Positions 1 to 25,922 of a stretch of DNA of 30,189 nt are shown here, piece by piece (position 1 is the first letter of the stretch; every line of letters starts with the position of its first letter). The notes under the pieces were generated by a model, which was not told the origin of the DNA, did not search any database, and was given only the letters and a program-made list of their open reading frames with translations. This DNA comes from a virus (Duplodnaviria; Heunggongvirae; Uroviricota; Caudoviricetes). The position numbers and the translations under genes are program-made. The stretch lies in the IMG/VR virus record IMGVR_UViG_2663762810_000004, positions 1-30,189 of that record; one strand, written 5' to 3'.

Positions 1-1128
1 TTAAGAGGGTATTTTTTGCCATTCTTTACCTCTGTCATCATGATATTTATCTGTTTGATGCTGGGTTTTATGACCCAGCAATTTTTGTGTATCAATTCCC
101 TGGTCTTTGTAAAGACGTTCAGACAATGATCTTTGCTCATGGAATGTAGCGGGTGTTCCATCTCCCCATTTAATACAAGCCTTATCCCTCGCCTTACTGA
201 AATTCATCGTTAATGTGTTCGATTTAACTTGTGCGCCTCGTTTAGCCTGTGATGTAGCTCGGAAAAAGTGAATCAGATAGGGGCTAACTGCATAATCTCG
301 ACAGCGCGCAACGACGTCACGTAAACTCCAGTTAATCGCATTGAGGCGAAGAGAAAGAGGTATAGCAATTTTGCTGCCGGTTTTTTCCTGTTCGATATGC
401 AGATGATCATCCCAGATATCGCTAAATTTCATTTTGGATATGTCACCAAGACGTTGCCCAGTCACAAGGGCAAGCAGCATTGCATTTCCCATATATTGAT
501 GTTTCTTATCTGCGATATCGAAAATCTTCAGCCACTCTTCGAGACTAAGTCGTTGTCTGGTAATCTTGCGCCTGGGCTGTTTAGTAGCAAGGGCAGGGTT
601 GTGACCAGGCGGCACTTCACCGTAGTGTTGGGCCTCTTTGAAAACATCGATCAGTACTGAACGAACAACTTGTGCCATTCTTGGTTGACCTGCAGATAGA
701 TACTCTTCAAGAATTTGAGCAATATCCCTGACATCAACAGAAGATATGAGCTTCATTCCCGCACGTTCCTTAAGAAGTGCAACTGGCTTGGCTTTTTGTT
801 TATACGTATTCTCCTTGATATCACCTGAAGCGAATCTTTCCTCCTGAATTTTCCAGTACCGCTCAAGCCAGGTAACAGTGGTAATTGACTTACCCTTGCC
901 GGTAGCAATTCGATCGCTTATAGCCAGTACCTGTCTTGAACGCTGCTCAGCAAGTCTTGCGTTTGCCTCAGTAGCAATTGCTTTAGCCTCAACTTCATCA
1001 GTACCTAGGCTGTGAAATTTCCCCGTTACAGGATGCTTGTACCTCCAATACACTTTATTGACCTTACGACTGTATAGTGGATAGAGGTTAGGTATTGATA
1101 CATTATTTTTACGTGGTCTCGCAGCCAT
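1..1128 (-). CDS. int: Tyrosine recombinase / phage integrase (lambda Int family). The ORF track extends to 1206, but the likely start is the internal Met (MAARPRK) at 1126-1128.
   Basis: Translation aligns along its length with the recalled lambda Int sequence, including the C-terminal catalytic region (HEQRSLSERLY ... LLGHK). It sits at the prophage edge, overlapping the xis 3' end. Confidence 0.9.
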   Translation of the reverse strand: MAARPRKNNVSIPNLYPLYSRKVNKVYWRYKHPVTGKFHSLGTDEVEAKAIATEANARLAEQRSRQVLAISDRIATGKGKSITTVTWLERYWKIQEERFASGDIKENTYKQKAKPVALLKERAGMKLISSVDVRDIAQILEEYLSAGQPRMAQVVRSVLIDVFKEAQHYGEVPPGHNPALATKQPRRKITRQRLSLEEWLKIFDIADKKHQYMGNAMLLALVTGQRLGDISKMKFSDIWDDHLHIEQEKTGSKIAIPLSLRLNAINWSLRDVVARCRDYAVSPYLIHFFRATSQAKRGAQVKSNTLTMNFSKARDKACIKWGDGTPATFHEQRSLSERLYKDQGIDTQKLLGHKTQHQTDKYHDDRGKEWQKIPS

Positions 1129-1354
1129 CGCTGAGGATCCTTTGCAATTTTGGTGAATCAGATTTCTTGATAACCGGCGCAGCAAGTTCTCCAACCAATT
1201 CCGCATCCTCCCTAACTCTCCAGAGCCTACCTTGCTTCATTGCTGGTGGAGAAAAGAGATTTTGCTTAGCGTAACGGCGCAATGTCGAGACGCTAGGTGG
1301 ATTACTTCTGTATTTATCGGTTGCCCATTCTTCAAGAGTTAACATCTGAATCAT
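1109..1354 (-). CDS. xis: Excisionase (Xis-like small DNA-binding protein)
   Basis: 81 aa ORF immediately upstream of and overlapping int. The LTLEEWA...STLRRYAK...GRLWRV pattern is typical of phage excisionase/AlpA-type HTH proteins. Confidence 0.75.
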   Translation of the reverse strand: MIQMLTLEEWATDKYRSNPPSVSTLRRYAKQNLFSPPAMKQGRLWRVREDAELVGELAAPVIKKSDSPKLQRILSDGCETT

Positions 1355-5214: not shown

Positions 5215-5877
5215 TTATGAAGAGAGCAGCATGACTTTTTCTTTTGCGGGCGAAGGTGACTGCTCTTTCAAAGGGAAAATTATAAATGCTATAAATGCAG
5301 TAAATAATACTATGAAAGCTAGCACTGTAACTTTCCTTGAAGATGATAGGGCTTTGTTATATTCCTTGGCTATTTTGTTCGTTATATGGATCTTAGTGCT
5401 ATTTATTTCATCTTTTAGTATGGATAATTTATTTATAAATTCCTGTGTTTCTTCTCGAGAGTAAAGTTCTGAAGCATCTCTTGGGGTTTCATGTGGATGC
5501 CGAGTATAACCAAGTATTTGTGGTATTAAATTACCATGCGATTGAACTACAGATTCATATTTCTTATAGCAAGCATTATCAAAAAATCTCATTCTTATGC
5601 TAAGTTCTCTGAGTTTGTCAACGTCTAGAGAAACTTGTTCGTTGGCAATAATTAAATCTCCGCGGTTTAATGTATTCTTGTGTTGAAAAATTAGTAAAAG
5701 CCATTCTGTATTATTGTAAAGCTTTTCAAGATTGGCATGTATATCAAGTCCGAGTTTTTCATATGCGGATAATTTGACCTCTTTTTCCTTTGCAGAAAGA
5801 GAAGATGAATAAGCCAGTAATCCGCTTATTATGGCAACAATAAATGTTCCTATAATGGTTAAGGTATTCGAGTCCAT
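5215..5877 (-). CDS. AT-rich hypothetical membrane protein. Start taken at the internal Met (MDSNTLTII) at 5875-5877; the ORF track extends to 5934.
   Basis: Hydrophobic segments at both the N terminus (IIGTFIVAIISGLLAY) and C terminus (VLAFIVLFTAFIAFIIF). Convergent with the 4145-4996 gene. Confidence 0.5.
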   Translation of the reverse strand: MDSNTLTIIGTFIVAIISGLLAYSSSLSAKEKEVKLSAYEKLGLDIHANLEKLYNNTEWLLLIFQHKNTLNRGDLIIANEQVSLDVDKLRELSIRMRFFDNACYKKYESVVQSHGNLIPQILGYTRHPHETPRDASELYSREETQEFINKLSILKDEINSTKIHITNKIAKEYNKALSSSRKVTVLAFIVLFTAFIAFIIFPLKEQSPSPAKEKVMLLSS

Positions 5878-5984
5878 TGTATTCTTCAAAAGTTGGTCAA
5901 AAATATATTGTAATATTTTAATGTATAAAATCAATCATTTCCCCTCATTCTGAGAGGACTCACAGCAACAAAGAGGGGGGCTAA

Positions 5985-15541: not shown

Positions 15542-16333
15542 ATGCCACAGATTGAAGAATTACGTCGTCAGCGTGCGGGTATTAATGAGCAGGTTCAGGC
15601 CCTGGCCACGATTGAAACTACCGGTGGAACGCTGACAGCGGAGCAGTTAACCGAATTTGCCAGCATGCAGCAGCAGTTCACGGATATCAGCGCCAAAATT
15701 GAGCGTCTGGAAGCGGCTGAACGTGCCGCGGCGCTTGTTGCCACACCGGTTAGAGGCACACAGCAGGCTCCTGGTGTCATCGTTAAGGCGGAGCCAAAGC
15801 AATATACCGGGGCAGGCATGACCCGTCTGGTGATGTCGATTGCAGCAGCGGAGGGTAACATCCAGGAGGCTGCAAAATTTGCGGCGGAAGAACTGAATGA
15901 CCCGTCTGTCTCGATGGCCATCAGCACTGCCGCTGCGTCAGGCGGCGTTCTTATTCCGCAAAACCTTCACAGCGAAGTGATTGAGCTACTGCGCGATCGT
16001 ACCATCGTTCGTAAGCTGGGCGCGCGCTCCATTCCGCTGCCGAACGGCAATATGGCGCTGCCGCGTCTGGCCGGTGGAGCGACGGCGAACTATACCGGGG
16101 AAGGTAAGGATGCGAAAACATCAGAAGCGCGCTTTGACGATGTGAAACTCACTGCGAAAACCATGATTGCGATGGTGCCCATCTCAAATCAGCTCATTGG
16201 CCGCGCAGGTTTTAACGTTGAACAACTGGTATTGCAGGATATTCTGACGGCGATTTCTGTTCGCGAAGATACCTGCACCGTCAGAGAGTACGTCGTTCAT
16301 TTTGACGGTCAGGCTGTTTTCTGCCACCGCTGA
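15542..16333 (+). pseudogene. Major capsid protein, truncated (N-terminal delta domain plus part of the capsid fold only)
   Basis: Coiled-coil delta-like N terminus and capsid-like middle region, but only 263 aa. The ORF ends in unrelated sequence and is followed about 130 bp later by tail gene L, with all intervening head-tail genes absent. Confidence 0.65.
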
Positions 16334-18595: not shown

Positions 18596-18985
18596 ATGGG
18601 TGGGAAGAACAAGAAAAAGCAGAGCACGCCGTATGAAGAGCCGGATAACCTGAAATCGGTACAGGAACTGAGCTTCATTGACGCCATCGGGGAAGGGCCG
18701 ATCGAGGGACTGGTTAAGGGGATGCAAAGTATCCTTATCAACAACACCCCCCTGGTAAATGACGATGACAGCTACAACGTACACGGTGTCACAGCAATTT
18801 ATAACGCCGGTGAACAGGAGCAGACCCCGCTGGAGGGGTTTGAAGATACCGGCGTGGAGGTCATGGTCAACGCTGAGATCAAACAGGATGCCCCCATTAC
18901 CCGGACCATTTCGGCGCGGAAGATGTTGTGCTTACAGGCACTTGGCAGGCTATGGGGTATTACCGGGAGGCCTATTATCAACTAA
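18596..18985 (+). pseudogene. J: Tail tip/host-specificity protein J, N-terminal fragment only (about 106 aa of J, then unrelated tail)
   Basis: Residues 1-106 match the lambda gpJ N terminus (DNLKS.Q...DAI.EGPIEG ... AGEQEQTP.EGFE ... PITRTI). The frame then runs into unrelated sequence and stops; lambda J is over 1100 aa. Confidence 0.8.
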
Positions 18986-19018
18986 CGCTTTTCCAGCGCA
19001 TTCGTTGAGGGGAAATCG

Positions 19019-19621
19019 ATGACAACCATAACTGATGCCCGTCACGGGCGATATAACGGGAACGGGACGATTTCGGTTCAGGTGCTGTTCAGTGACAGTG
19101 AGCGCTATCTTCCCTATACCGCGGCAGCTCATGACCCGACTGACTATGGTCAGCAGCTCTATTCAGACCTGGTCGCCGGTAAATACGGCGAAGTGACACC
19201 GTTTACCGTTACTGAGGCGATGCTGGCGTCAGCCAGACAGGCTAAGCGGGATGAAATTAACGCCTGGCGCGATGCGCAGGAAGAGAAAGAGTATCTGATG
19301 ACCTGGAACGGCAGGCGGTGGGATTATGGCAAAAAAACGCAGTCCCGGATGAGTACCTCTGTGACCATGGCATCACGAAATGTCCTGCCGGATGGCTTTG
19401 CCTGGACTGATGGTGATAACACTGTCGTGCCGGTGACAGCGGAAGAACTGCTCGCGCTGGCAGACGCCATTGAAAAGGCGATGTTTGAAAAGGGCATGCA
19501 GATTAACCAGCGTCAGTTGCAGATGAAAGCCGAAATGAATGCACTGACTGTGCTGGACGCCATCAGAAATTACAGGGTGGGCTGGAATGAATCTGTGGAG
19601 GACATAACCAGAACAGGGTAA
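19019..19621 (+). CDS. Tail-associated protein, possibly DUF4376-like (tail fibre assembly/chaperone-like)
   Basis: 200 aa ORF with good start context after the J fragment. The C-terminal helical region (KRDEINAWRDAQE ... LLALADAIEKAM) resembles the recalled DUF4376 pattern; assignment is tentative. Confidence 0.55.
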   Translation: MTTITDARHGRYNGNGTISVQVLFSDSERYLPYTAAAHDPTDYGQQLYSDLVAGKYGEVTPFTVTEAMLASARQAKRDEINAWRDAQEEKEYLMTWNGRRWDYGKKTQSRMSTSVTMASRNVLPDGFAWTDGDNTVVPVTAEELLALADAIEKAMFEKGMQINQRQLQMKAEMNALTVLDAIRNYRVGWNESVEDITRTG

Positions 19622-19635
19622 GGGCGGGAGACAGT

Positions 19636-19950
19636 ATGGGAACCAGGGTACTGGCAGTGGGAAGAGCGTGGCAGCAACTGACCGACGGTGAGGAGAATAT
19701 GATTTTTACGTTTTCTGGTGTCATCGAACTGTGTGACAGCGATATCAGGCCGGGAGAGTCTGCTCTTTCCCTGAGGTACCCCGGACAAACCATTATTATT
19801 TCCCCGCCCACAAAGGCATGGGTGAGGGCTGCGGGTTATGACAATACGGTCAGGCTGTTCATTAGTGACAGAGTAGCAGCCAGCGTCCCTGTGATTAAAA
19901 ACAGAGTGGGCCAGAAGGGGCCGGAGGCGTTATGGCAACCAGAGAAATGA
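19636..19950 (+). CDS. Small hypothetical protein, paralog 1 of a tandem pair
   Basis: 104 aa; the N terminus (TRVLAVGRAWQQLTDGE) is paralogous to the next ORF (TREMIVGREWQELTDGS), as is AAGYDNTVRL vs ASGYDGSVRV. Confidence 0.5.
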   Translation: MGTRVLAVGRAWQQLTDGEENMIFTFSGVIELCDSDIRPGESALSLRYPGQTIIISPPTKAWVRAAGYDNTVRLFISDRVAASVPVIKNRVGQKGPEALWQPEK

Positions 19951-20165
19951 TTGTGGGGCGGGAGTGGCAGGAGCTGACTGACGGCAGTCAGACCGTTTTT
20001 GTCCAGATAAACGGGGTGGCTGATGTCTGCTCCAGCGCCCGGAAACCTGACACCGCGCATCCTGCGCACAATATGAATAATGAAAAATTCACGACCACCC
20101 CCCCGGACCGGCTGTGGATCAGAGCATCAGGATATGACGGCAGTGTCCGGGTCATTGTGACATAG
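19932..20165 (+). CDS. Small hypothetical protein, paralog 2 of a tandem pair
   Basis: 77 aa; shares N- and C-terminal motifs with the preceding ORF and overlaps its 3' end. Confidence 0.5.
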   Translation: MATREMIVGREWQELTDGSQTVFVQINGVADVCSSARKPDTAHPAHNMNNEKFTTTPPDRLWIRASGYDGSVRVIVT

Positions 20166-20174
20166 GAGATTAAG

Positions 20175-22232
20175 ATGCCCATTCTTGCACCAGGATTTTT
20201 GGGAGGCTCGTCCGCCGGGAATGGCGGCGGGCCGGTCTCTTCAGTTCAGCAGCCGGAATACTTCTATGTCATCCCGGTTGCCGGTCAGTCAAACGCGATG
20301 GCCTACGGCGAAGGGCTCCCCCTTCCAGACACGCTGGATGCGCCTCACCCGCGTATTAAACAGCTGGCCCGGCGCGCCACGGTAACGCCCGGCGGCGATG
20401 CCTGCAAATACAACGACATTATTCCTCTCGATCACTGTCCGCACGATGTTCAGGACATGAGCGGGATCAGCCACCCGAGAGCGGACCTCAGTAAAGGGCA
20501 ATATGGGTGTGTCAGCCAGACGCTGCACATTGCCAGAAAACTCCTGGCCTGGATCCCCGATAACGCAGGTATTCTGATGGTGCCCTGTTGTCGCGGTGGC
20601 TCTGCCTTCACGCAGGGAGTGGACGGCACTTTCAACGTTGTCAGTGGTGCCAGCGAAACCGCAACCCGATGGGGGGCGGGAAAGCCGTTGTACCGTGACC
20701 TGCTCACCCGCACGAAAGCAGCGCTCGACAGCAACCCGAAAAATATGCTGCTGGCGGTATGCTGGATGCAGGGTGAATTTGATATGACAGGGGCGGCTTA
20801 TGCACAGCAGCCTGCGCTGTTCGACGCTATGGTCAGGCAGTTCCGTACCGACCTGGCGGATTACGCGGGGCAGTGCCCGGACTTCCGGCCTGACAGTGTG
20901 CCGTGGCTGTGCGGGGACACCACGTACTACTGGAAGCGCAACTATCCCGCCCAGTACGATGCTGTTTATGGCGCGTACAGTAAAACCAGTGTCAGCGGCG
21001 TACATTTTGTGCCGTTCATGGTCAGCGAGGATGGCACGAACACCCCTACCAACGCCCCGGCTGAGGATCCGAATGTTCCGGCTGCGGGGTATTTCGGCTC
21101 GGCATCCCGTACTTCTGCCAACTGGACCAGCTCGATCCGCAACAGTCATTTCAGTTCGTGGGCCCGGCGAAACATCATCGCAGAACGTATGGCGGCGGCC
21201 ATTCTGCTGCACGCCGGGCGACGGTCACTGCTGGCGGCCCCGGTTAGTGGAAGTGCAGCGTCTTCAACGGGCGATACAGGCAATGTGGGAACGAGTACGC
21301 TGAAATACGCCCCTGTTGTGGAGGACGCCGGTTATAACGGGCGGCGCGGGGACGGGACGCCGGAGGCCCAGGGCTGGTCAGCCAGCGGCGGTAATTTTAA
21401 CGTGGCACCACACCCGGATGGTAAAGGGGGGCATGTGCTGCAGATCCGCAGAAAAGCCAGTGAAGTCTGGAAAATGGAACGGGCAACCCGACAGGCCGCT
21501 GATTTGTTACGGTATGGTGGCGAGGTGCAGTGCAACTTCCGGCTCGTTAATACACTGACGGCAAACCAGTTTGCTTTTGGCTGCTATCTGCTGGTGAATG
21601 AATCGGATGTTCCGGCCGGAGCCTCGTTACGGCTGAAAGCCGAGGGCACCACACCGGCGCTGATGAATTTCTTCATACAGACGAATGCTACAGATTTGAA
21701 TCTGATGATGCACTGCAAACCCGACAATATCAGGCTGGGTACGTACGGTGCGTACAATCAGGACTGGCATTCGTTCAGGGTCGTTTACCATGGCGGAAAC
21801 ACAGCCCGGGCCACGCTTTATCTCGATGGTGAGTCGAAGGGCGAGTTCACGCTGGCGTACTCGCCGGGGGCTGTCGATGCAGGCATGCTGCAACTGACAA
21901 ATATCACCTCCTCACCGACCTATGGATGCAATATTAAGGATTTTACCGTCAAAATTTACCGCGACGATGCCATAGTCAGTCTGCCTGACGACGATGTGTC
22001 CAGTCTGATTTATTTTCCGGCGGGGGAGCGCGGCGGGAAAGTGGTGTTACCGGATGCGAAAATCAGCGCAGGAAACACAGTGCAGGTGGTGGTGAACAAT
22101 GCCGGTATCATCGCCATTGAACCAGCAAGCAGCAACGTACTGCTTAACAATCTGCCTTCTTCTGCAACCACTGACAGAAGTGTCACGCTGGTTCAGACCA
22201 GTCTGGACGGGAAGACCTGGGTGATTACCTGA
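20175..22232 (+). CDS. Tail-fibre-region protein with an N-terminal SGNH hydrolase/sialate-O-acetylesterase-like domain and a C-terminal lectin-like region (NanS-p-like)
   Basis: N-terminal FYVIPVAGQSNAMAYGE (GQSN motif) and CWMQGEFDM are typical of the SGNH/SASA esterase family. 685 aa; the 3' end is duplicated downstream at about 25216-25383. Confidence 0.75.
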   Translation: MPILAPGFLGGSSAGNGGGPVSSVQQPEYFYVIPVAGQSNAMAYGEGLPLPDTLDAPHPRIKQLARRATVTPGGDACKYNDIIPLDHCPHDVQDMSGISHPRADLSKGQYGCVSQTLHIARKLLAWIPDNAGILMVPCCRGGSAFTQGVDGTFNVVSGASETATRWGAGKPLYRDLLTRTKAALDSNPKNMLLAVCWMQGEFDMTGAAYAQQPALFDAMVRQFRTDLADYAGQCPDFRPDSVPWLCGDTTYYWKRNYPAQYDAVYGAYSKTSVSGVHFVPFMVSEDGTNTPTNAPAEDPNVPAAGYFGSASRTSANWTSSIRNSHFSSWARRNIIAERMAAAILLHAGRRSLLAAPVSGSAASSTGDTGNVGTSTLKYAPVVEDAGYNGRRGDGTPEAQGWSASGGNFNVAPHPDGKGGHVLQIRRKASEVWKMERATRQAADLLRYGGEVQCNFRLVNTLTANQFAFGCYLLVNESDVPAGASLRLKAEGTTPALMNFFIQTNATDLNLMMHCKPDNIRLGTYGAYNQDWHSFRVVYHGGNTARATLYLDGESKGEFTLAYSPGAVDAGMLQLTNITSSPTYGCNIKDFTVKIYRDDAIVSLPDDDVSSLIYFPAGERGGKVVLPDAKISAGNTVQVVVNNAGIIAIEPASSNVLLNNLPSSATTDRSVTLVQTSLDGKTWVIT

Positions 22233-22239
22233 AAAAAAA

Positions 22240-22271
22240 GCCGCTTCTGTAACAGGAAAGACAGAAGCGGC
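22240..22271 (-). terminator. Hairpin terminator at the 3' end of the esterase gene; the U-tract is on the minus strand
   Basis: Perfect 11 bp stem GCCGCTTCTGT/ACAGAAGCGGC preceded on the plus strand by A8 (a T-run on the minus strand). Duplicated at about 25389-25420. Confidence 0.5.
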
Positions 22272-22335
22272 CATGTAGTGCTACTTGCGTTTTTATAAGG
22301 CTATTTTCGGTAGTAAATATGCAGCGTCCTCGTTA

Positions 22336-22920
22336 CAGAGGACACGTAATGTATTTCACCAGCAGGAAACGGAAGGCAAGAGATCGAGCTCTCATTTTTA
22401 ACAGAAATTTATTAGGACAAAATATTGACAGTTATCAGTAAAAAAGGCCGCTTCTACTTTTGGGGAGGAAGCGGCCGGTGAACTACGATGATAATAATGC
22501 TTTCTGACTACATATGTCTTATCGACACAACCCAGTCCTCGGGCAGGTATATTTATTTCACCTGCAGGAAAGAGAAAACAGTGATCAGTCTCTCATTTTT
22601 GAGAAAAATCATAGAAATAAATGATTGCGGGTAAAAAAAACGCTTCACCACAGTAAAGGATGAAGCGTGAGTCAGAATAAAAGTATTCATAAATCCACGT
22701 TTGCATTACTTCCTATACATACAGAAGTAAGGTTACTTATTTCACCTGCAGGGAAAAAAAGGCAAGGATTTGGATCTCATTTTTGAAGAGAACGCCGAAA
22801 AAATAGAATGAAAGGTAAAAAAAACGCTTCAACACAGGACAGGGTGAAGCGCCAGACATAATACAAATCCAATAAACGTAATTTTACTCTTTCAGCACTT
22901 CTGCTCCATACAGAAGTGCA
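22336..22920. repeat. Three tandem ~185-200 bp units of a periodic repeat family (conserved 5' TATTTCACC-[A/T]GCAGG, central CTCATTTTTGA, A-run plus hairpin), followed by a fourth unit fused to the DUF1353-like gene
   Basis: TATTTCACC motif at 22352, 22554, 22738 and 22926; TCTCATTTTTGA about 38 bp downstream of the first three; A7-8 plus hairpin (GGCCGCTTC/GAAGCGGCC, CGCTTCA/TGAAGCG) about 90 bp downstream. Confidence 0.7.
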
Positions 22921-22952
22921 ATATGTATTTCACCATCAGGCGGAACAAGTCA

Positions 22953-23333
22953 ATGAGTAAATTCACCACCCCGGCGATACTGGAAATGCTGGGTCATTAC
23001 AAATGGCGGGTGTACGAACCCTTCGAGTTTTACCTCTCGGATGACAACAGCGATGTGATTAAGGTCCCGGCGGGGTTTGTGACCGATCTGGCAAGCGTGC
23101 CCCGGATATTCTGGACATTCCTCCCACCTGATGGGCGGTATGCCAAAGCAGCTATCATTCATGATTACATGTACGATAATGCGCTACGGACAAAGAAAGA
23201 AGCCGATCTCATTTTTCTGGACGGGATGCGGGTACTGGGTGTGCCAGAGTGGAAGCGTTCGGTGATGTACCACGCTGTACGGATGTTTGGTAAAGGGCGG
23301 TATGCGCAGAATAGAACCCTTCCAGGTGTTTAG
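22953..23333 (+). CDS. DUF1353-like small protein, copy 1. Start taken at MSKFTT (22953).
   Basis: Conserved VPAGFVTDLASVPR ... AAIIHDYMYD pattern recalled for DUF1353. Near-identical second copy at 25923-26303 and a decayed copy at 24808. Confidence 0.6.
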   Translation: MSKFTTPAILEMLGHYKWRVYEPFEFYLSDDNSDVIKVPAGFVTDLASVPRIFWTFLPPDGRYAKAAIIHDYMYDNALRTKKEADLIFLDGMRVLGVPEWKRSVMYHAVRMFGKGRYAQNRTLPGV

Positions 23334-23423
23334 TCACCAGTTCCGGAAGATCAGCTCGGCTGAGTCGGGCTTCTATCGACTGAAATAACTTCTCCATTTC
23401 GTTCTTGTACATATGAATTCCAC

Positions 23424-23460
23424 AGAAAAAATGCCACTTATCTGGCTTCCAGATAAGTGG
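23424..23460 (-). terminator. Rho-independent terminator for the minus-strand cargo gene; also present in the duplicated copy at about 26394-26430
   Basis: Perfect palindrome CCACTTATCTGG-cttc-CAGATAAGTGG preceded on the plus strand by AAAAAAT (a U-tract on the minus strand). Confidence 0.5.
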
Positions 23461-23485
23461 CCAGTCAACGGTAGAACGCTTCTAC

Positions 23486-24370
23486 TTAGCTTTTTGTGAA
23501 ACGGTAAAATAAATTGGGCTCACTGACAATATACAAATTAAATTTGTCATCGATAGTAATGCCCTCTGCTTGTTTAATATCCTTTGTTAATCCCGACCAC
23601 CCTGCATCCAGATAGAGTCGATCGGTAATACGTCCCACAGGATTAACTTCAACCACTATTTTTGATTCATCTGAAAGTATCAGTAGTGAAGATGTTAGAG
23701 GATGGTAATGCAGCCCAGATACATCCTTCAAAGACGAAGTGATAACGGTTGGAAAAATTTTAATATGCGCATCATCATTCTGGGGAAATATTCTGCTAAT
23801 GATTATTGGTATTTTTTCCTTTGCTGAATATAAATGCTGTTTCTCTTTATCCCAGGCCAGTCCTTCCAGTCCGTTGTTTTTGGGAGTGGCGTAATCATTA
23901 AACTTAATCTTCGAAATGACAGTATAACTAAAAGCATGTAAGTCTAATTTTACCATCCAGGCTGTGCTGTTTTTCTCACTTCCTATATAGAATACATCTT
24001 TACCAACCCACTCTACAGCTTCTGTATCCTCAAATTCAGGTAAGGTCATACTTCCCACTCTGTCGCCTTCCTTTGTCAGCCATATCAGTTCTGGTGGGTT
24101 ATTAACAACAGCAAACAGAAGTTTGTGTTTATCTGACCAGGTCAGGCCAGACAGATTATTCTTTACACCTTCAACAGGTTTGCCCTCTATGTCTGCCCGA
24201 TATGCGCTAAGATTAAGGCTTGTTGGGATATCTTCATATTTTTCATATAATCGATAGATATATATTATATCCTTATAGATGTACATAAAACAAACCACAA
24301 AAATAGCCACAAAAATTAAATACCTTAAATATATGCTCAATATTTCATCCAAATAATAAAGTAAAGCCAA
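23486..24370 (-). CDS. AT-rich cargo protein with N-terminal hydrophobic segment and beta-rich body (possibly YjiK/SdiA-regulated-like propeller; unconfirmed)
   Basis: 294 aa ORF in a strongly AT-rich block flanked by the two DUF1353 repeat copies and followed by a terminator. N terminus LIFVAIFVVCFMYIY is hydrophobic; the true start may be a later Met. Confidence 0.6.
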   Translation of the reverse strand: MALLYYLDEILSIYLRYLIFVAIFVVCFMYIYKDIIYIYRLYEKYEDIPTSLNLSAYRADIEGKPVEGVKNNLSGLTWSDKHKLLFAVVNNPPELIWLTKEGDRVGSMTLPEFEDTEAVEWVGKDVFYIGSEKNSTAWMVKLDLHAFSYTVISKIKFNDYATPKNNGLEGLAWDKEKQHLYSAKEKIPIIISRIFPQNDDAHIKIFPTVITSSLKDVSGLHYHPLTSSLLILSDESKIVVEVNPVGRITDRLYLDAGWSGLTKDIKQAEGITIDDKFNLYIVSEPNLFYRFTKS

Positions 24371-24529
24371 TCATGACTTTGGAGATGATATTAATGAGGG
24401 GCGTTTGTATCCAACTGTTTCTAAAAATTTTTTAATATGAGCAATCAGTGTCGAAGTAACCCTGATAGAACAGTTTTCTTGGCTAAATACCAATTAAAGG
24501 AGGAGTACATAACGAAACCTCAGCCAGGT

Positions 24530-24780
24530 AGTATTATTTACAAATCCACGTTTGCATTACTTCCGCTAGATACAACAGTAAGATTATGTATTTCACCATC
24601 AGATGGCGAAAAACAATGATCAATGTCTCATTTTTGAATCATGATTCAGTTCAGGGGGGGGATTGATGAAAAAAAACCGCTCAATCATGGGAAAGAGCGG
24701 TCTGAAATCATTACGCCTACAATATTAATATGAACGCTACTAGATCCGGCAGATAAAGATAAGCCTGCTGGAGGTGATTT
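24530..24780. repeat. One unit of the same periodic repeat family, followed by a unit fused to the DUF1353 pseudogene
   Basis: TATTTCACC at 24589 and 24781; GTCTCATTTTTGA at 24625; A8 plus hairpin CCGCTC/GAGCGG at about 24669-24700. Confidence 0.6.
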
Positions 24781-24807
24781 TATTTCACCAGTAGATGGGA
24801 TATGTCA

Positions 24808-24965
24808 ATGAGTAAATTCACCACTCCGTCGATACTGGAAATGCTGGGTAATTACAAATGGCAGGTGTACGACCCTTCGAGTTTTACCTCTCAGATGATA
24901 ATGTCAGCGCCAGTGATGTGATTAAAGGTCCCGGCGGGATTTGTGACCGCCTTGGCTGGTTATAG
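24808..24965 (+). pseudogene. DUF1353-like gene 5' fragment, frameshifted/decayed
   Basis: Starts ATGAGTAAATTCACCAC (MSKFTTPSILEMLGNYKWQVY), matching the intact copies, then loses frame and runs into the tail-fibre remnant. Confidence 0.6.
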
Positions 24966-25383
24966 GGGGACAGAGCCCTGGTTTCAGAGTTGACAGTTTG
25001 CCGTGGTTGTGCCGAGGAGCACAACGTACTAATCATTGCAAAACGCATGTCTGGCGATGCAGGTATGCTGCAGCTGGCAAATACCACCTCGTAATCGACC
25101 TGTAGATGCAATATTAAGGATTTCAGAGTCAAAATTTACCGGGATGTGTAGTGATCAGTCGTTTTTTTCTGTGGGAAGCTGCCGCGGGAAATCAGTACTG
25201 CTGGATACAGAAACCAGCGTGGGGAATACGGTACAGGTGGTGGCGAACAATGCCGGTATCATCGCCATTGAACCAGCAAGCAGCAACGTACTGCTTAACA
25301 ATCTGCCTTCTTCTACAACCACTGACAGAAGTGTCACGCTGGTTCAGACCAGTCTGGACGGGAAGACCTGGGTGATTACCTGA
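24966..25383 (+). pseudogene. Decayed remnant of the esterase tail-fibre gene 3' end (internally deleted, with in-frame stops)
   Basis: Nucleotide similarity to 20885-20930 and 21880-22232 of the intact gene, with stops. The last 160 bp or so (VGNTVQVVANNAGIIAIEPASSNVLLNNLPSS...TWVIT) are near-identical to 22075-22232, as is the downstream hairpin. Confidence 0.6.
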
Positions 25384-25494
25384 AAAAAAAGCCGCTTCTG
25401 TAACAGGAAAGACAGAAGCGGCTAGGTAGTGCTACTTGCGTTTTTATAAAGATTATTTCAACAATGAAAAGTACAACCTGTTATATGCATCGCT

Positions 25495-25890
25495 CTCATC
25501 CCTGAAGGCATACAATGTATTTCACCTGCAGGAAAGGTAAGGCAAGGATCAAGCTCTCATTTTTGAGAAAAATCATAGAACCAAATGAATTTAGGGTAAA
25601 AAAACGCTTCGCCACAAGACAGGATGAAGAGTCAGTCAGAAAACAAGCATAATGAATGCAATCCTACTCATTCCGTACTGTTACTCCACATAGAGGTACA
25701 GTATGTGTTTCATCATCAGTCTGTGAATATCGTGGGTCAAGGAAAGATCAGTATCTCATTTCAGAGCATGAGATGCGTTGGAACAGATAAAAATATAAAA
25801 AAGACCGCTCAATCATGGGAGAGAGCGGTGGAAGAAATTTTGACAATATGACCTACAACCAGCAGGAAAAGAAGAAACCTGCTGGTGTAG
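25495..25890. repeat. Two units of the periodic repeat family, followed by a unit fused to DUF1353 copy 2
   Basis: Motif at 25518 (TATTTCACC), a variant at about 25703 (TGTGTTTCATC) and 25896; CTCTCATTTTTGA at 25555; hairpins at about 25598-25625 and 25795-25827. Confidence 0.6.
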
Positions 25891-25922
25891 AGATTTATTT
25901 CACCAGCAGACGGAATAAGTCA

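Follow-up and report, generated by a model that had tools for sequence, protein, structure and literature searches.

Within the 30,189-nucleotide stretch of DNA analyzed here (IMG/VR virus record IMGVR_UViG_2663762810_000004, positions 1 to 30,189; hereafter the window), which is a degraded lambdoid prophage at the icd/e14 site of an Escherichia chromosome, positions 24781-25449 very probably hold a real, non-functional composite gene relic, made up of the decayed 5' end of a DUF1353 gene and two scraps of an esterase gene. The relic is an ordinary recombination scar at the accessory right end of a decaying prophage, a new example of a well-known kind. An initial annotation, made from the sequence alone, had described a composite pseudogene in which a decayed DUF1353 start is fused to an internally deleted esterase 3' end with its hairpin, and both blastn and translation reproduced this structure.

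The homologies were defined by a sensitive blastn comparison of 24600-25700 with the whole window. The left part of the relic matches the 5' ends and leaders of two other DUF1353 genes, 24781-24949 aligning with 22926-23085 (84.7% identity, E=2e-49) and 24669-24956 with 25797-26062 (77%, E=4e-57). The remainder matches the resident esterase gene, first at 24946-25031 (esterase 20847-20929; 74.4%, E=4e-7) and then at 25051-25573 (21871-22408, that is, the esterase 3' end and sequence downstream; 79%, E=8e-136). The esterase matches originally proposed, about 20885-20930 and 21880-22232, were thus close, the actual ones being 20847-20929 and 21871-22232.

The relic opens with the leader motif TATTTCACCAGTAGA (24781-24795, plus strand), which lies about 13 nt ahead of every DUF1353 start codon and is placed identically relative to DUF1353 in phages from IMG/VR. 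The DUF1353 (TtaP-like) remnant that follows (24808-24957, plus strand) comprises about 45-48 codons and is 85-88% identical to the two intact copies with which it was aligned (22953-23092 and 25924-26063). Its reading frame collapses soon after the start, as had been noticed at the outset: there is a 1-nt deletion after 24871, insertions of 9 nt and 1 nt are found near 24902-24926, and an in-frame TGA stands at 24919-24921. The remnant stops at ...GFVT(D)LA, before the IIHDYMY segment, and the HD-containing part of PF07087 is absent. Because only the first ~45 DUF1353 codons are left, frameshifted and ending before IIHDYMY, the relic cannot be an enzyme.

The DUF1353 and esterase alignments respectively end and begin on a dodecamer, now ACCGCCTTGGCT (24946-24957, plus strand). 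From here the first esterase fragment (24946-25031, plus strand) covers codons ~225-252 and is interrupted by stops and a frameshift. In the esterase frame it reads TALAGYRGTEPWFQS, a stop, QFAVVVPRSTTY and a second stop, against TDLADYAGQCPDFRPDSVPWLCGDTTYYW in the intact gene; the peptide DSLPWLC, corresponding to DSVPWLC, is still recognizable. The next 19 bases (25032-25050, plus strand) could not be aligned and mark the joint of an internal deletion, with resident positions 20930-21870 (~940 bp) missing. The second fragment resumes at codon ~566. Its first part (25051-25233, plus strand; codons ~566-636, homologous to 21871-22082) begins at 85% identity, drops to ~62% and contains the stops TAA, TAG and TGA; translated in the esterase frame, the fragment gives SGDAGMLQLANTTS, a stop and STCRCNIKDFRVKIYRDV against intact AVDAGMLQLTNITSSPTYGCNIKDFTVKIYRDD, and codons of the relic type include ...LQLANTTS... 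and ...FFSVGSCRGKSVLLDTETSVGNT.... A net loss of 29 nt between 25144 and 25234 lies ahead of the frame of the last ~70 codons. The second part (25234-25383, plus strand) consists of the last 50 esterase codons plus the stop and is identical to 22083-22232 at 148 of 150 positions. It is followed by an A8 run, a hairpin with a 12-bp stem (25391-25422) and a conserved tail, together occupying 25384-25449 (64/66 identical to 22233-22298). The hairpin has a folding energy of -19.9 kcal/mol and a T-run follows its stem on the minus strand only (hairpin, then U8); in sequence it reads as a putative intrinsic terminator on that strand alone. Over the whole relic, nothing of the SASA catalytic domain is left, and the DUF6645 and DUF1353 domains are mostly missing. 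The same arrangement recurs in more than 10 independent assemblies, including the complete chromosome CP057470.1 and gut metagenome contigs, and therefore is not an assembly artefact.

The intact parent of the 3' fragments is a 685-residue NanS/NanS-p-type esterase encoded at 20175-22232 on the plus strand (PF03629 SASA and PF20350 DUF6645; phrog_143). Its residues 22-345 match NanS (PDB 3pt5, E=1e-124), residues 387-594 match the C-terminal domain of NanS-p (PDB 6yp6, E=2e-35), and over residues 21-594 it is ~52% identical to NanS-p-type proteins. Sialate O-acetylesterases of this kind are known from E. coli and Stx prophages (PDB 3pt5, 6yp6; PMC10462455; bioRxiv 10.64898/2026.04.10.717836), and a DUF1737 capsid-binding domain has been described for the phi24B esterase. 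Like NanS-p, the resident protein combines an SASA/SGNH catalytic domain with a DUF6645 jelly-roll domain. Unlike NanS-p, it lacks DUF1737 (no Pfam match to this N-terminal capsid-binding domain was found in the resident esterase, whose NanS-p-type homology begins at residue 21), carries ~90 extra C-terminal residues and is encoded in the side-tail-fibre region, followed by DUF1353, rather than downstream of stx/Q. The relic differs further from NanS-p in retaining codons ~225-252 and ~566-685 alone, without the catalytic domain. On less degraded sister contigs the esterase gene lies in the side-tail-fibre region after the C-terminus of J, a phage_tail_N protein, a DUF4376 protein and two small genes. 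"Tail fibre", the name first given to the parent gene, is therefore only a positional label, the gene not being recognizable as that of a tail fibre.

The C-terminal extension (residues 595-685) has no counterpart in solved NanS/NanS-p structures or in NanS-p-type relatives. Among the loci examined, it occurs only in esterases that are followed by DUF1353, a distribution suggesting that the extension and DUF1353 may be functionally linked. A scan of genome contigs with the esterase returned only NanS-p-type relatives (~52% identity) without DUF1353. The two intact DUF1353 genes of the window, copy 1 at 22953-23333 (PF07087, E=2e-31) and copy 3 at 25924-26303, lie on the plus strand, encode 126 residues each and are 95% identical over 22923-23477/25893-26448; both carry the complete PF07087 domain including the HD segment. 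DUF1353 corresponds to the TtaP family, of which S. Typhi TtaP was shown to be a phospholipase A2 and for which prophage homologs have been noted (PMC11525133); the PHROGs label for the family is tail assembly chaperone. As predicted single-domain proteins of 126 residues, the intact neighbors of the relic appear to resemble these TtaP prophage homologs.

The relationship between the relic and the resident esterase is not uniform along its length. When the resident copy and the relic were aligned together with a homolog from Salmonella Muenchen (locus L022), 25234-25449 and 22083-22298 are identical at 212 of 216 positions (98.1%), a patch that includes 150 coding bases and the hairpin region. 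In the 39 bases immediately upstream identity falls to 64%, and in the 54 bases downstream to 61%. The near-perfect 3' duplicate reported initially is therefore present, though it measures 216 bp in all rather than ~160 bp plus a hairpin. General conservation does not account for it, because inside the patch the Salmonella homolog is 84% identical to both copies equally (80.7% to either over the coding stretch 25234-25383). The simplest reading of these alignments is that the patch is a bounded tract of gene conversion between two copies in one element. The four differences within it (T>C, G>A, C>T and T>G) include a single transversion beside three transitions, so that the description of a few scattered, unbiased transitions was right about the lack of bias and wrong about one of the four changes. 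The suggested alignment with a table of substitution types showed similarity well beyond the last 160 bp: over 21871-22298 there are 52 aligned substitutions, 38 transitions and 14 transversions, and adenine is the resident base in 12 of them, while A makes up 27% of bases, so that adenine positions are not favored.

Outside the patch, the two copies point to different sources. Past the relic, the spacer shares 91% identity with the Salmonella locus and 61% with the resident spacer. The resident spacer, in turn, is 61-67% identical to the relic spacer and the Salmonella one, and recurs at 92% identity in an E. coli prophage (locus L075). Because the spacers match different loci, the two cassettes would derive from different lineages, and we infer an origin in two phages. 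The relic is accordingly homologous to the resident gene, as first proposed, without being simply its decayed copy: its identity is a mosaic, 98% in the patch and 61-64% in the flanks, with two cassette lineages apparently joined.

The intact arrangement sought as the ancestor of the relic does exist. We compared 52 IMG/VR loci encoding DUF1353 relatives, and five of them (L023, L027, L030, L071 and L073) encode a full-length esterase that is 60-67% identical to the resident one, C-terminal extension included. In all five the esterase is followed by ~130-140 bp and then DUF1353. Between the two genes of this intact layout are an A-run, a hairpin rich in GC, ~70 nt and, ~13 nt ahead of the ATG, the leader TATTTCACCNGCAGG. 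At other loci DUF1353 comes after a DUF4376/Tfa-like gene, with the same hairpin-plus-leader spacer.

The relic itself has been inherited as part of a larger unit. A prophage beside ompN/ydbK in other E. coli carries block 18911-26733 (7.8 kb), with the relic in it, at 98.2% identity, showing that the relic was passed on en bloc in a module common to two prophages at different chromosomal sites. Between these lineages the relic has diverged by 1.4% and the intact genes by 0.5-0.9% (small counts). Differences between relic segments and their intact counterparts are distributed over the three codon positions as 6/6/7, 3/5/6 and 6/7/10, compared with 5/3/12 between the two intact DUF1353 genes; these counts too are small, and the 3' patch has been reset by conversion. 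Both the spread over codon positions and the divergence between lineages fit neutral evolution. In a third prophage, beside trpA/yciG, tail gene L is fused to the last 66 esterase codons, followed by the hairpin, two repeat units of the kind described below and DUF1353. Given this L::esterase fusion, 3' stubs of the esterase gene appear to be recurrent deletion endpoints at the prophage end.

The junction within the relic suggests how it arose. A 12-bp sequence, ACCGACCTGGCG, is common to DUF1353 copy 3 (26052-26063) and the esterase gene (20847-20858), and encodes TDLA in both. By our own estimate, a shared 12-mer between a 0.4-kb and a 2-kb gene is expected by chance at a level of ~0.05. To judge from this sequence, the junction probably records an illegitimate joining, mediated by microhomology, of a DUF1353 gene to an esterase gene downstream of it in the same orientation. 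The following history, whose order of events we infer, can be proposed. Two related cassettes, each comprising a NanS-p-like esterase gene, a hairpin and a DUF1353/TtaP-like gene, would have met on one molecule in direct orientation. An illegitimate crossover or deletion at ACCGACCTGGCG would then have joined DUF1353 codon ~45 to codon ~225 of the downstream esterase gene, destroying both genes. In the case of a crossover, a phage arm with esterase-A, DUF1353, the SdiA-regulated moron and a further DUF1353 at its end would have been joined to the middle of esterase-B in the other cassette, with the upstream esterase (20175-22232) and two DUF1353 genes left intact. A second deletion may have taken ~940 bp from esterase-B, roughly codons 253-565, after which point changes and small indels would have accrued regardless of codon position. 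Later, gene conversion would have evened out the differences between relic and resident gene over the 216-bp patch, which covers the last 50 codons and the hairpin region. What the alignments show directly is the homology of the segments, their disruptions, the microhomology at the junction, the limits of the identity patch and the inheritance of the relic en bloc. As to the earlier proposal that the region records a cassette replaced by recombination, recombination is indeed indicated, but stacking of cassettes fits better than replacement, since the upstream esterase stays the working copy.

Several observations weigh against this account. Gene callers annotate open reading frames of 54-79 residues within the relic; we consider that the 54-79-residue "hypothetical proteins" entered in databases here are fragments of a NanS-p-like esterase and not genes. 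The direction of conversion finds no support in the outgroup, as the Salmonella homolog sides with each copy at two of the four differing sites. No intermediate, that is, a fusion with an undeleted esterase 3' part, was found, and a scan of metagenomes with a degenerate pattern specific for the junction recovered the same lineage only. Likewise, no intact esterase allele of the relic type was found in a free-living phage, and a protein search with the relic C-terminus returned short fragments of open reading frames only. Finally, given the even spread over codon positions, a large share of the divergence could have built up through decay of a simple duplicate once it was inactivated, instead of reflecting different alleles. 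One further candidate, a separate C-terminal gene (P0006), was rejected, a frameshift in an old read assembly explaining it.

The even spread over codon positions leads to the alternative that survives best, in which the resident esterase-DUF1353 cassette would simply have been duplicated in tandem inside a single prophage and then have undergone deletion and a long period of neutral decay, with no second phage lineage involved. Differences spread evenly over codon positions are what decay after inactivation would produce, and the A-B-A' layout of the region (22013-23477/25164-26448) is duplication-like. However, decay cannot converge on another lineage, and the spacer downstream of the relic is closer to the Salmonella locus than to the resident spacer by the margin given above. 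Divergence also swings between 62% and 98% identity in adjacent segments. We therefore regard a duplication of this kind as unlikely and prefer the joining of two cassettes.

Another set of alternatives concerns the repeats among which the relic lies. When up to two mismatches are allowed, the leader motif TATTTCACCNGCAGG is found 10 times in the window, where 0.19 matches are expected, and nine of the 10 fall within 22352-26505; a further leader-like motif, TATTTCAATTGCAGG, is seen at 26491. Around these motifs we distinguished six plus-strand units of ~190 bp: u1-u3 (22340-22922), u4 (24580-24780), directly upstream of the relic, and u5-u6 (25510-25893), between the relic and DUF1353 copy 3. 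Each consists of a leader, ~15 nt, GATC..CTCATTTTTG, ~30 nt, an A-run with a GC hairpin, and a spacer; the A-run and hairpin read as a putative intrinsic terminator on the minus strand only. The cores are invariant in units that are otherwise ~55% identical. In all six, the second core fits the DUF1353 codons for ADLIF more closely than shuffled controls do, and the unit ends resemble the esterase stop and terminator. From their sequence, the units appear to be extreme reductions of a DUF1353::esterase composite, or amplified copies of one such reduction, the relic being the largest of ~7.

It may be asked whether such an array is maintained for a function of its own. In one version, the relic would be the least-reduced of ~7-10 units of a maintained array between the esterase and DUF1353 genes. 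This array would either encode a family of minus-strand small RNAs, antisense to the leader of DUF1353, or serve as a dedicated hotspot for the stacking of esterase/DUF1353/moron cassettes and their exchange between co-resident prophages. We consider this version improbable. A related one, in which leader/terminator units are kept as small minus-strand transcription units (small RNAs or insulators) or as a regulatory leader of DUF1353 and the relic persists for the sake of its ends, is very doubtful. The abundance of the leader motif and the invariant cores do speak for it, as do a strong minus-strand hairpin with U-run at 8 of 10 sites despite differing stem sequences (the u5 site is weak, -8.5 kcal/mol), a promoter-like TTTACC-N16/17-TATGAT just downstream of two units, and the presence of units, with mosaic conservation, in the Salmonella locus (310-720) and the E. 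coli prophage L075 (6058-6460). Yet promoter-like sites are no more frequent here than in shuffled sequences, copy number varies between lineages, and the cores can be explained as leftovers (the DUF1353 leader, the codons ADLIF, the esterase terminator) kept alike by conversion among repeats. Nor is there a match to a known family: Rfam searches of 22200-26700 at gathering and permissive thresholds gave chance-level matches only. The unit array had no blastn match, in near or distant mode, in INPHARED phages or 5,426 complete RefSeq E. coli genomes, and the unit pattern had none in IMG/VR. Two other readings of the repeats were rejected. As small open reading frames (MYFT...), the units conserve neither start codons nor frames, and a 30-codon open frame is not significant; on inspection of the sequences, Chi-site and palindromic recombinase-core interpretations of the leader motif are not conserved across copies.

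Two local features of the array may be mentioned. Upstream of two DUF1353 leaders (24744-24795 and 25858-25910; 685-735 in the Salmonella locus), CCTGCTGG can pair with an upstream CC(A/G)GCAGG or with CACCAGCAG of the leader, and the A/G variation in CC(A/G)GCAGG preserves a G-U pair on plus-strand RNA only. This hints at alternative hairpins that might control DUF1353 expression. In addition, a G8 homopolymer at 24654-24661 in u4, ~290 bp upstream of the start of the SdiA-regulated gene, is possibly slippage-prone.

The relic can also be imagined as a silent donor cassette, in the manner of pilS, from which gene conversion would replace the C-terminal module of the expressed esterase and so vary its specificity. 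Conversion has left a clear tract between the copies (216 bp, with flanks at 61-64%), and the relic retains exactly the region downstream of DUF6645, codons 566-685. However, the divergent part differs by 29 nt and contains stops, so its transfer would frameshift the resident gene; there is one cassette only; no alternative functional C-terminal alleles were seen among the strains; and over the last 70 nt the lineages differ by two non-synonymous changes and one synonymous change. We find this hardly credible.

The weakest alternative, a diversity-generating retroelement with the relic and the esterase 3' end as its template/variable repeat pair, has practically no chance of being correct. The gene concerned, whose protein probably acts on sugars of the cell surface, does have its 3' end repeated almost identically, but the pair shows no adenine bias in the patch or in the 52 substitutions tabulated above, contains indels and stops, and is accompanied by no identified reverse transcriptase. 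Specifically, no reverse transcriptase was found among open reading frames of at least 230 residues, those identified being integrase, Q, terminase, portal, protease, capsid, L, K, I, esterase, the SdiA-regulated protein, DUF5677 and DUF4145; the frame at 5215-5934 on the minus strand (239 residues) has no Pfam match, and the frame antisense to the esterase gene was not scanned. An invertible segment or shufflon was likewise rejected, as all related copies are direct repeats and no invertase was identified among these frames of at least 230 residues, the only integrase being of the lambda type and lying at the opposite end of the window.

Between DUF1353 copy 1 and the relic lies an AT-rich gene of the SdiA-regulated family (23486-24370, minus strand; PF06977, E=5e-72), a moron. 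It has its own minus-strand terminator (23461-23433) and is inserted exactly after ...GGTAGAAC, the end of the duplicated DUF1353 segment. It is retained in every strain examined, even those with structural genes deleted.

The remainder of the window documents the state of the prophage. The chromosomal flank (ycgX, iraM, an icd fragment and ymgL) is 95-96% identical to RefSeq E. coli, and source records were named E. coli. Genes for integrase (1-1206, minus strand), antiterminator Q, lysis, terminase, portal and protease lie in the left part of the prophage. Of the capsid gene a truncated form is left (15542-16333; of the 280 positions of the Pfam profile, 1-111 are matched), which directly adjoins tail gene L (16463), the tail genes between them being gone. 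Of the tip protein J, the first 109 codons alone are left (18596-18985). Sister strains of the icd-site prophage have other large deletions and retain the relic block. At the right end, isrK (79 bits) and C4 antisense RNA (75 bits) were detected at 27454-27643 on the minus strand, directly upstream of an Ant/Bro-N antirepressor gene (26748-27407); this arrangement is a P1/P7-type c4-ant immunity module. Just past isrK, an 11-bp unit, TTATTCCCCCA, is repeated three times in tandem (27700-27741). A DinI-family fragment at 26541-26655 on the minus strand, 93-97% identical to E. coli dinI-like genes, comprises the C-terminal part only, without a proper start, and is another pseudogene. In the chromosomal flank, a 43-bp element occurs twice (28672-28714 and 29532-29574), contains the hairpin ACGGGCGTAT..CACGCCCGT and looks REP-like.

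The relic has no function of its own. It and the resident cassette are direct repeats of each other, able to drive further deletion or conversion, and the 216-bp and 555-bp repeats predict further deletions removing the SdiA-regulated moron. Current understanding of phage biology is unchanged by it; its value is that of a base-level example of how a prophage accessory end is built up and eroded, through a microhomology join, internal deletion, neutral decay, a conversion patch and transfer in a module. In the mosaicism and moron-accretion picture attributed to Hendrix and Juhala, gene remnants at the mosaic joints of lambdoid prophages are said to result from illegitimate recombination followed by deletion. 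The relic resembles such remnants in being a truncated, fused gene fragment at the accessory right end, beside an AT-rich moron with its own terminator, and its prophage, visibly losing structural genes, agrees with the same picture. It differs from the usual mosaic-joint remnants in that its junction can be pinned to a 12-bp microhomology, it carries a bounded 216-bp patch, and it travels in a 7.8-kb block found at two sites.

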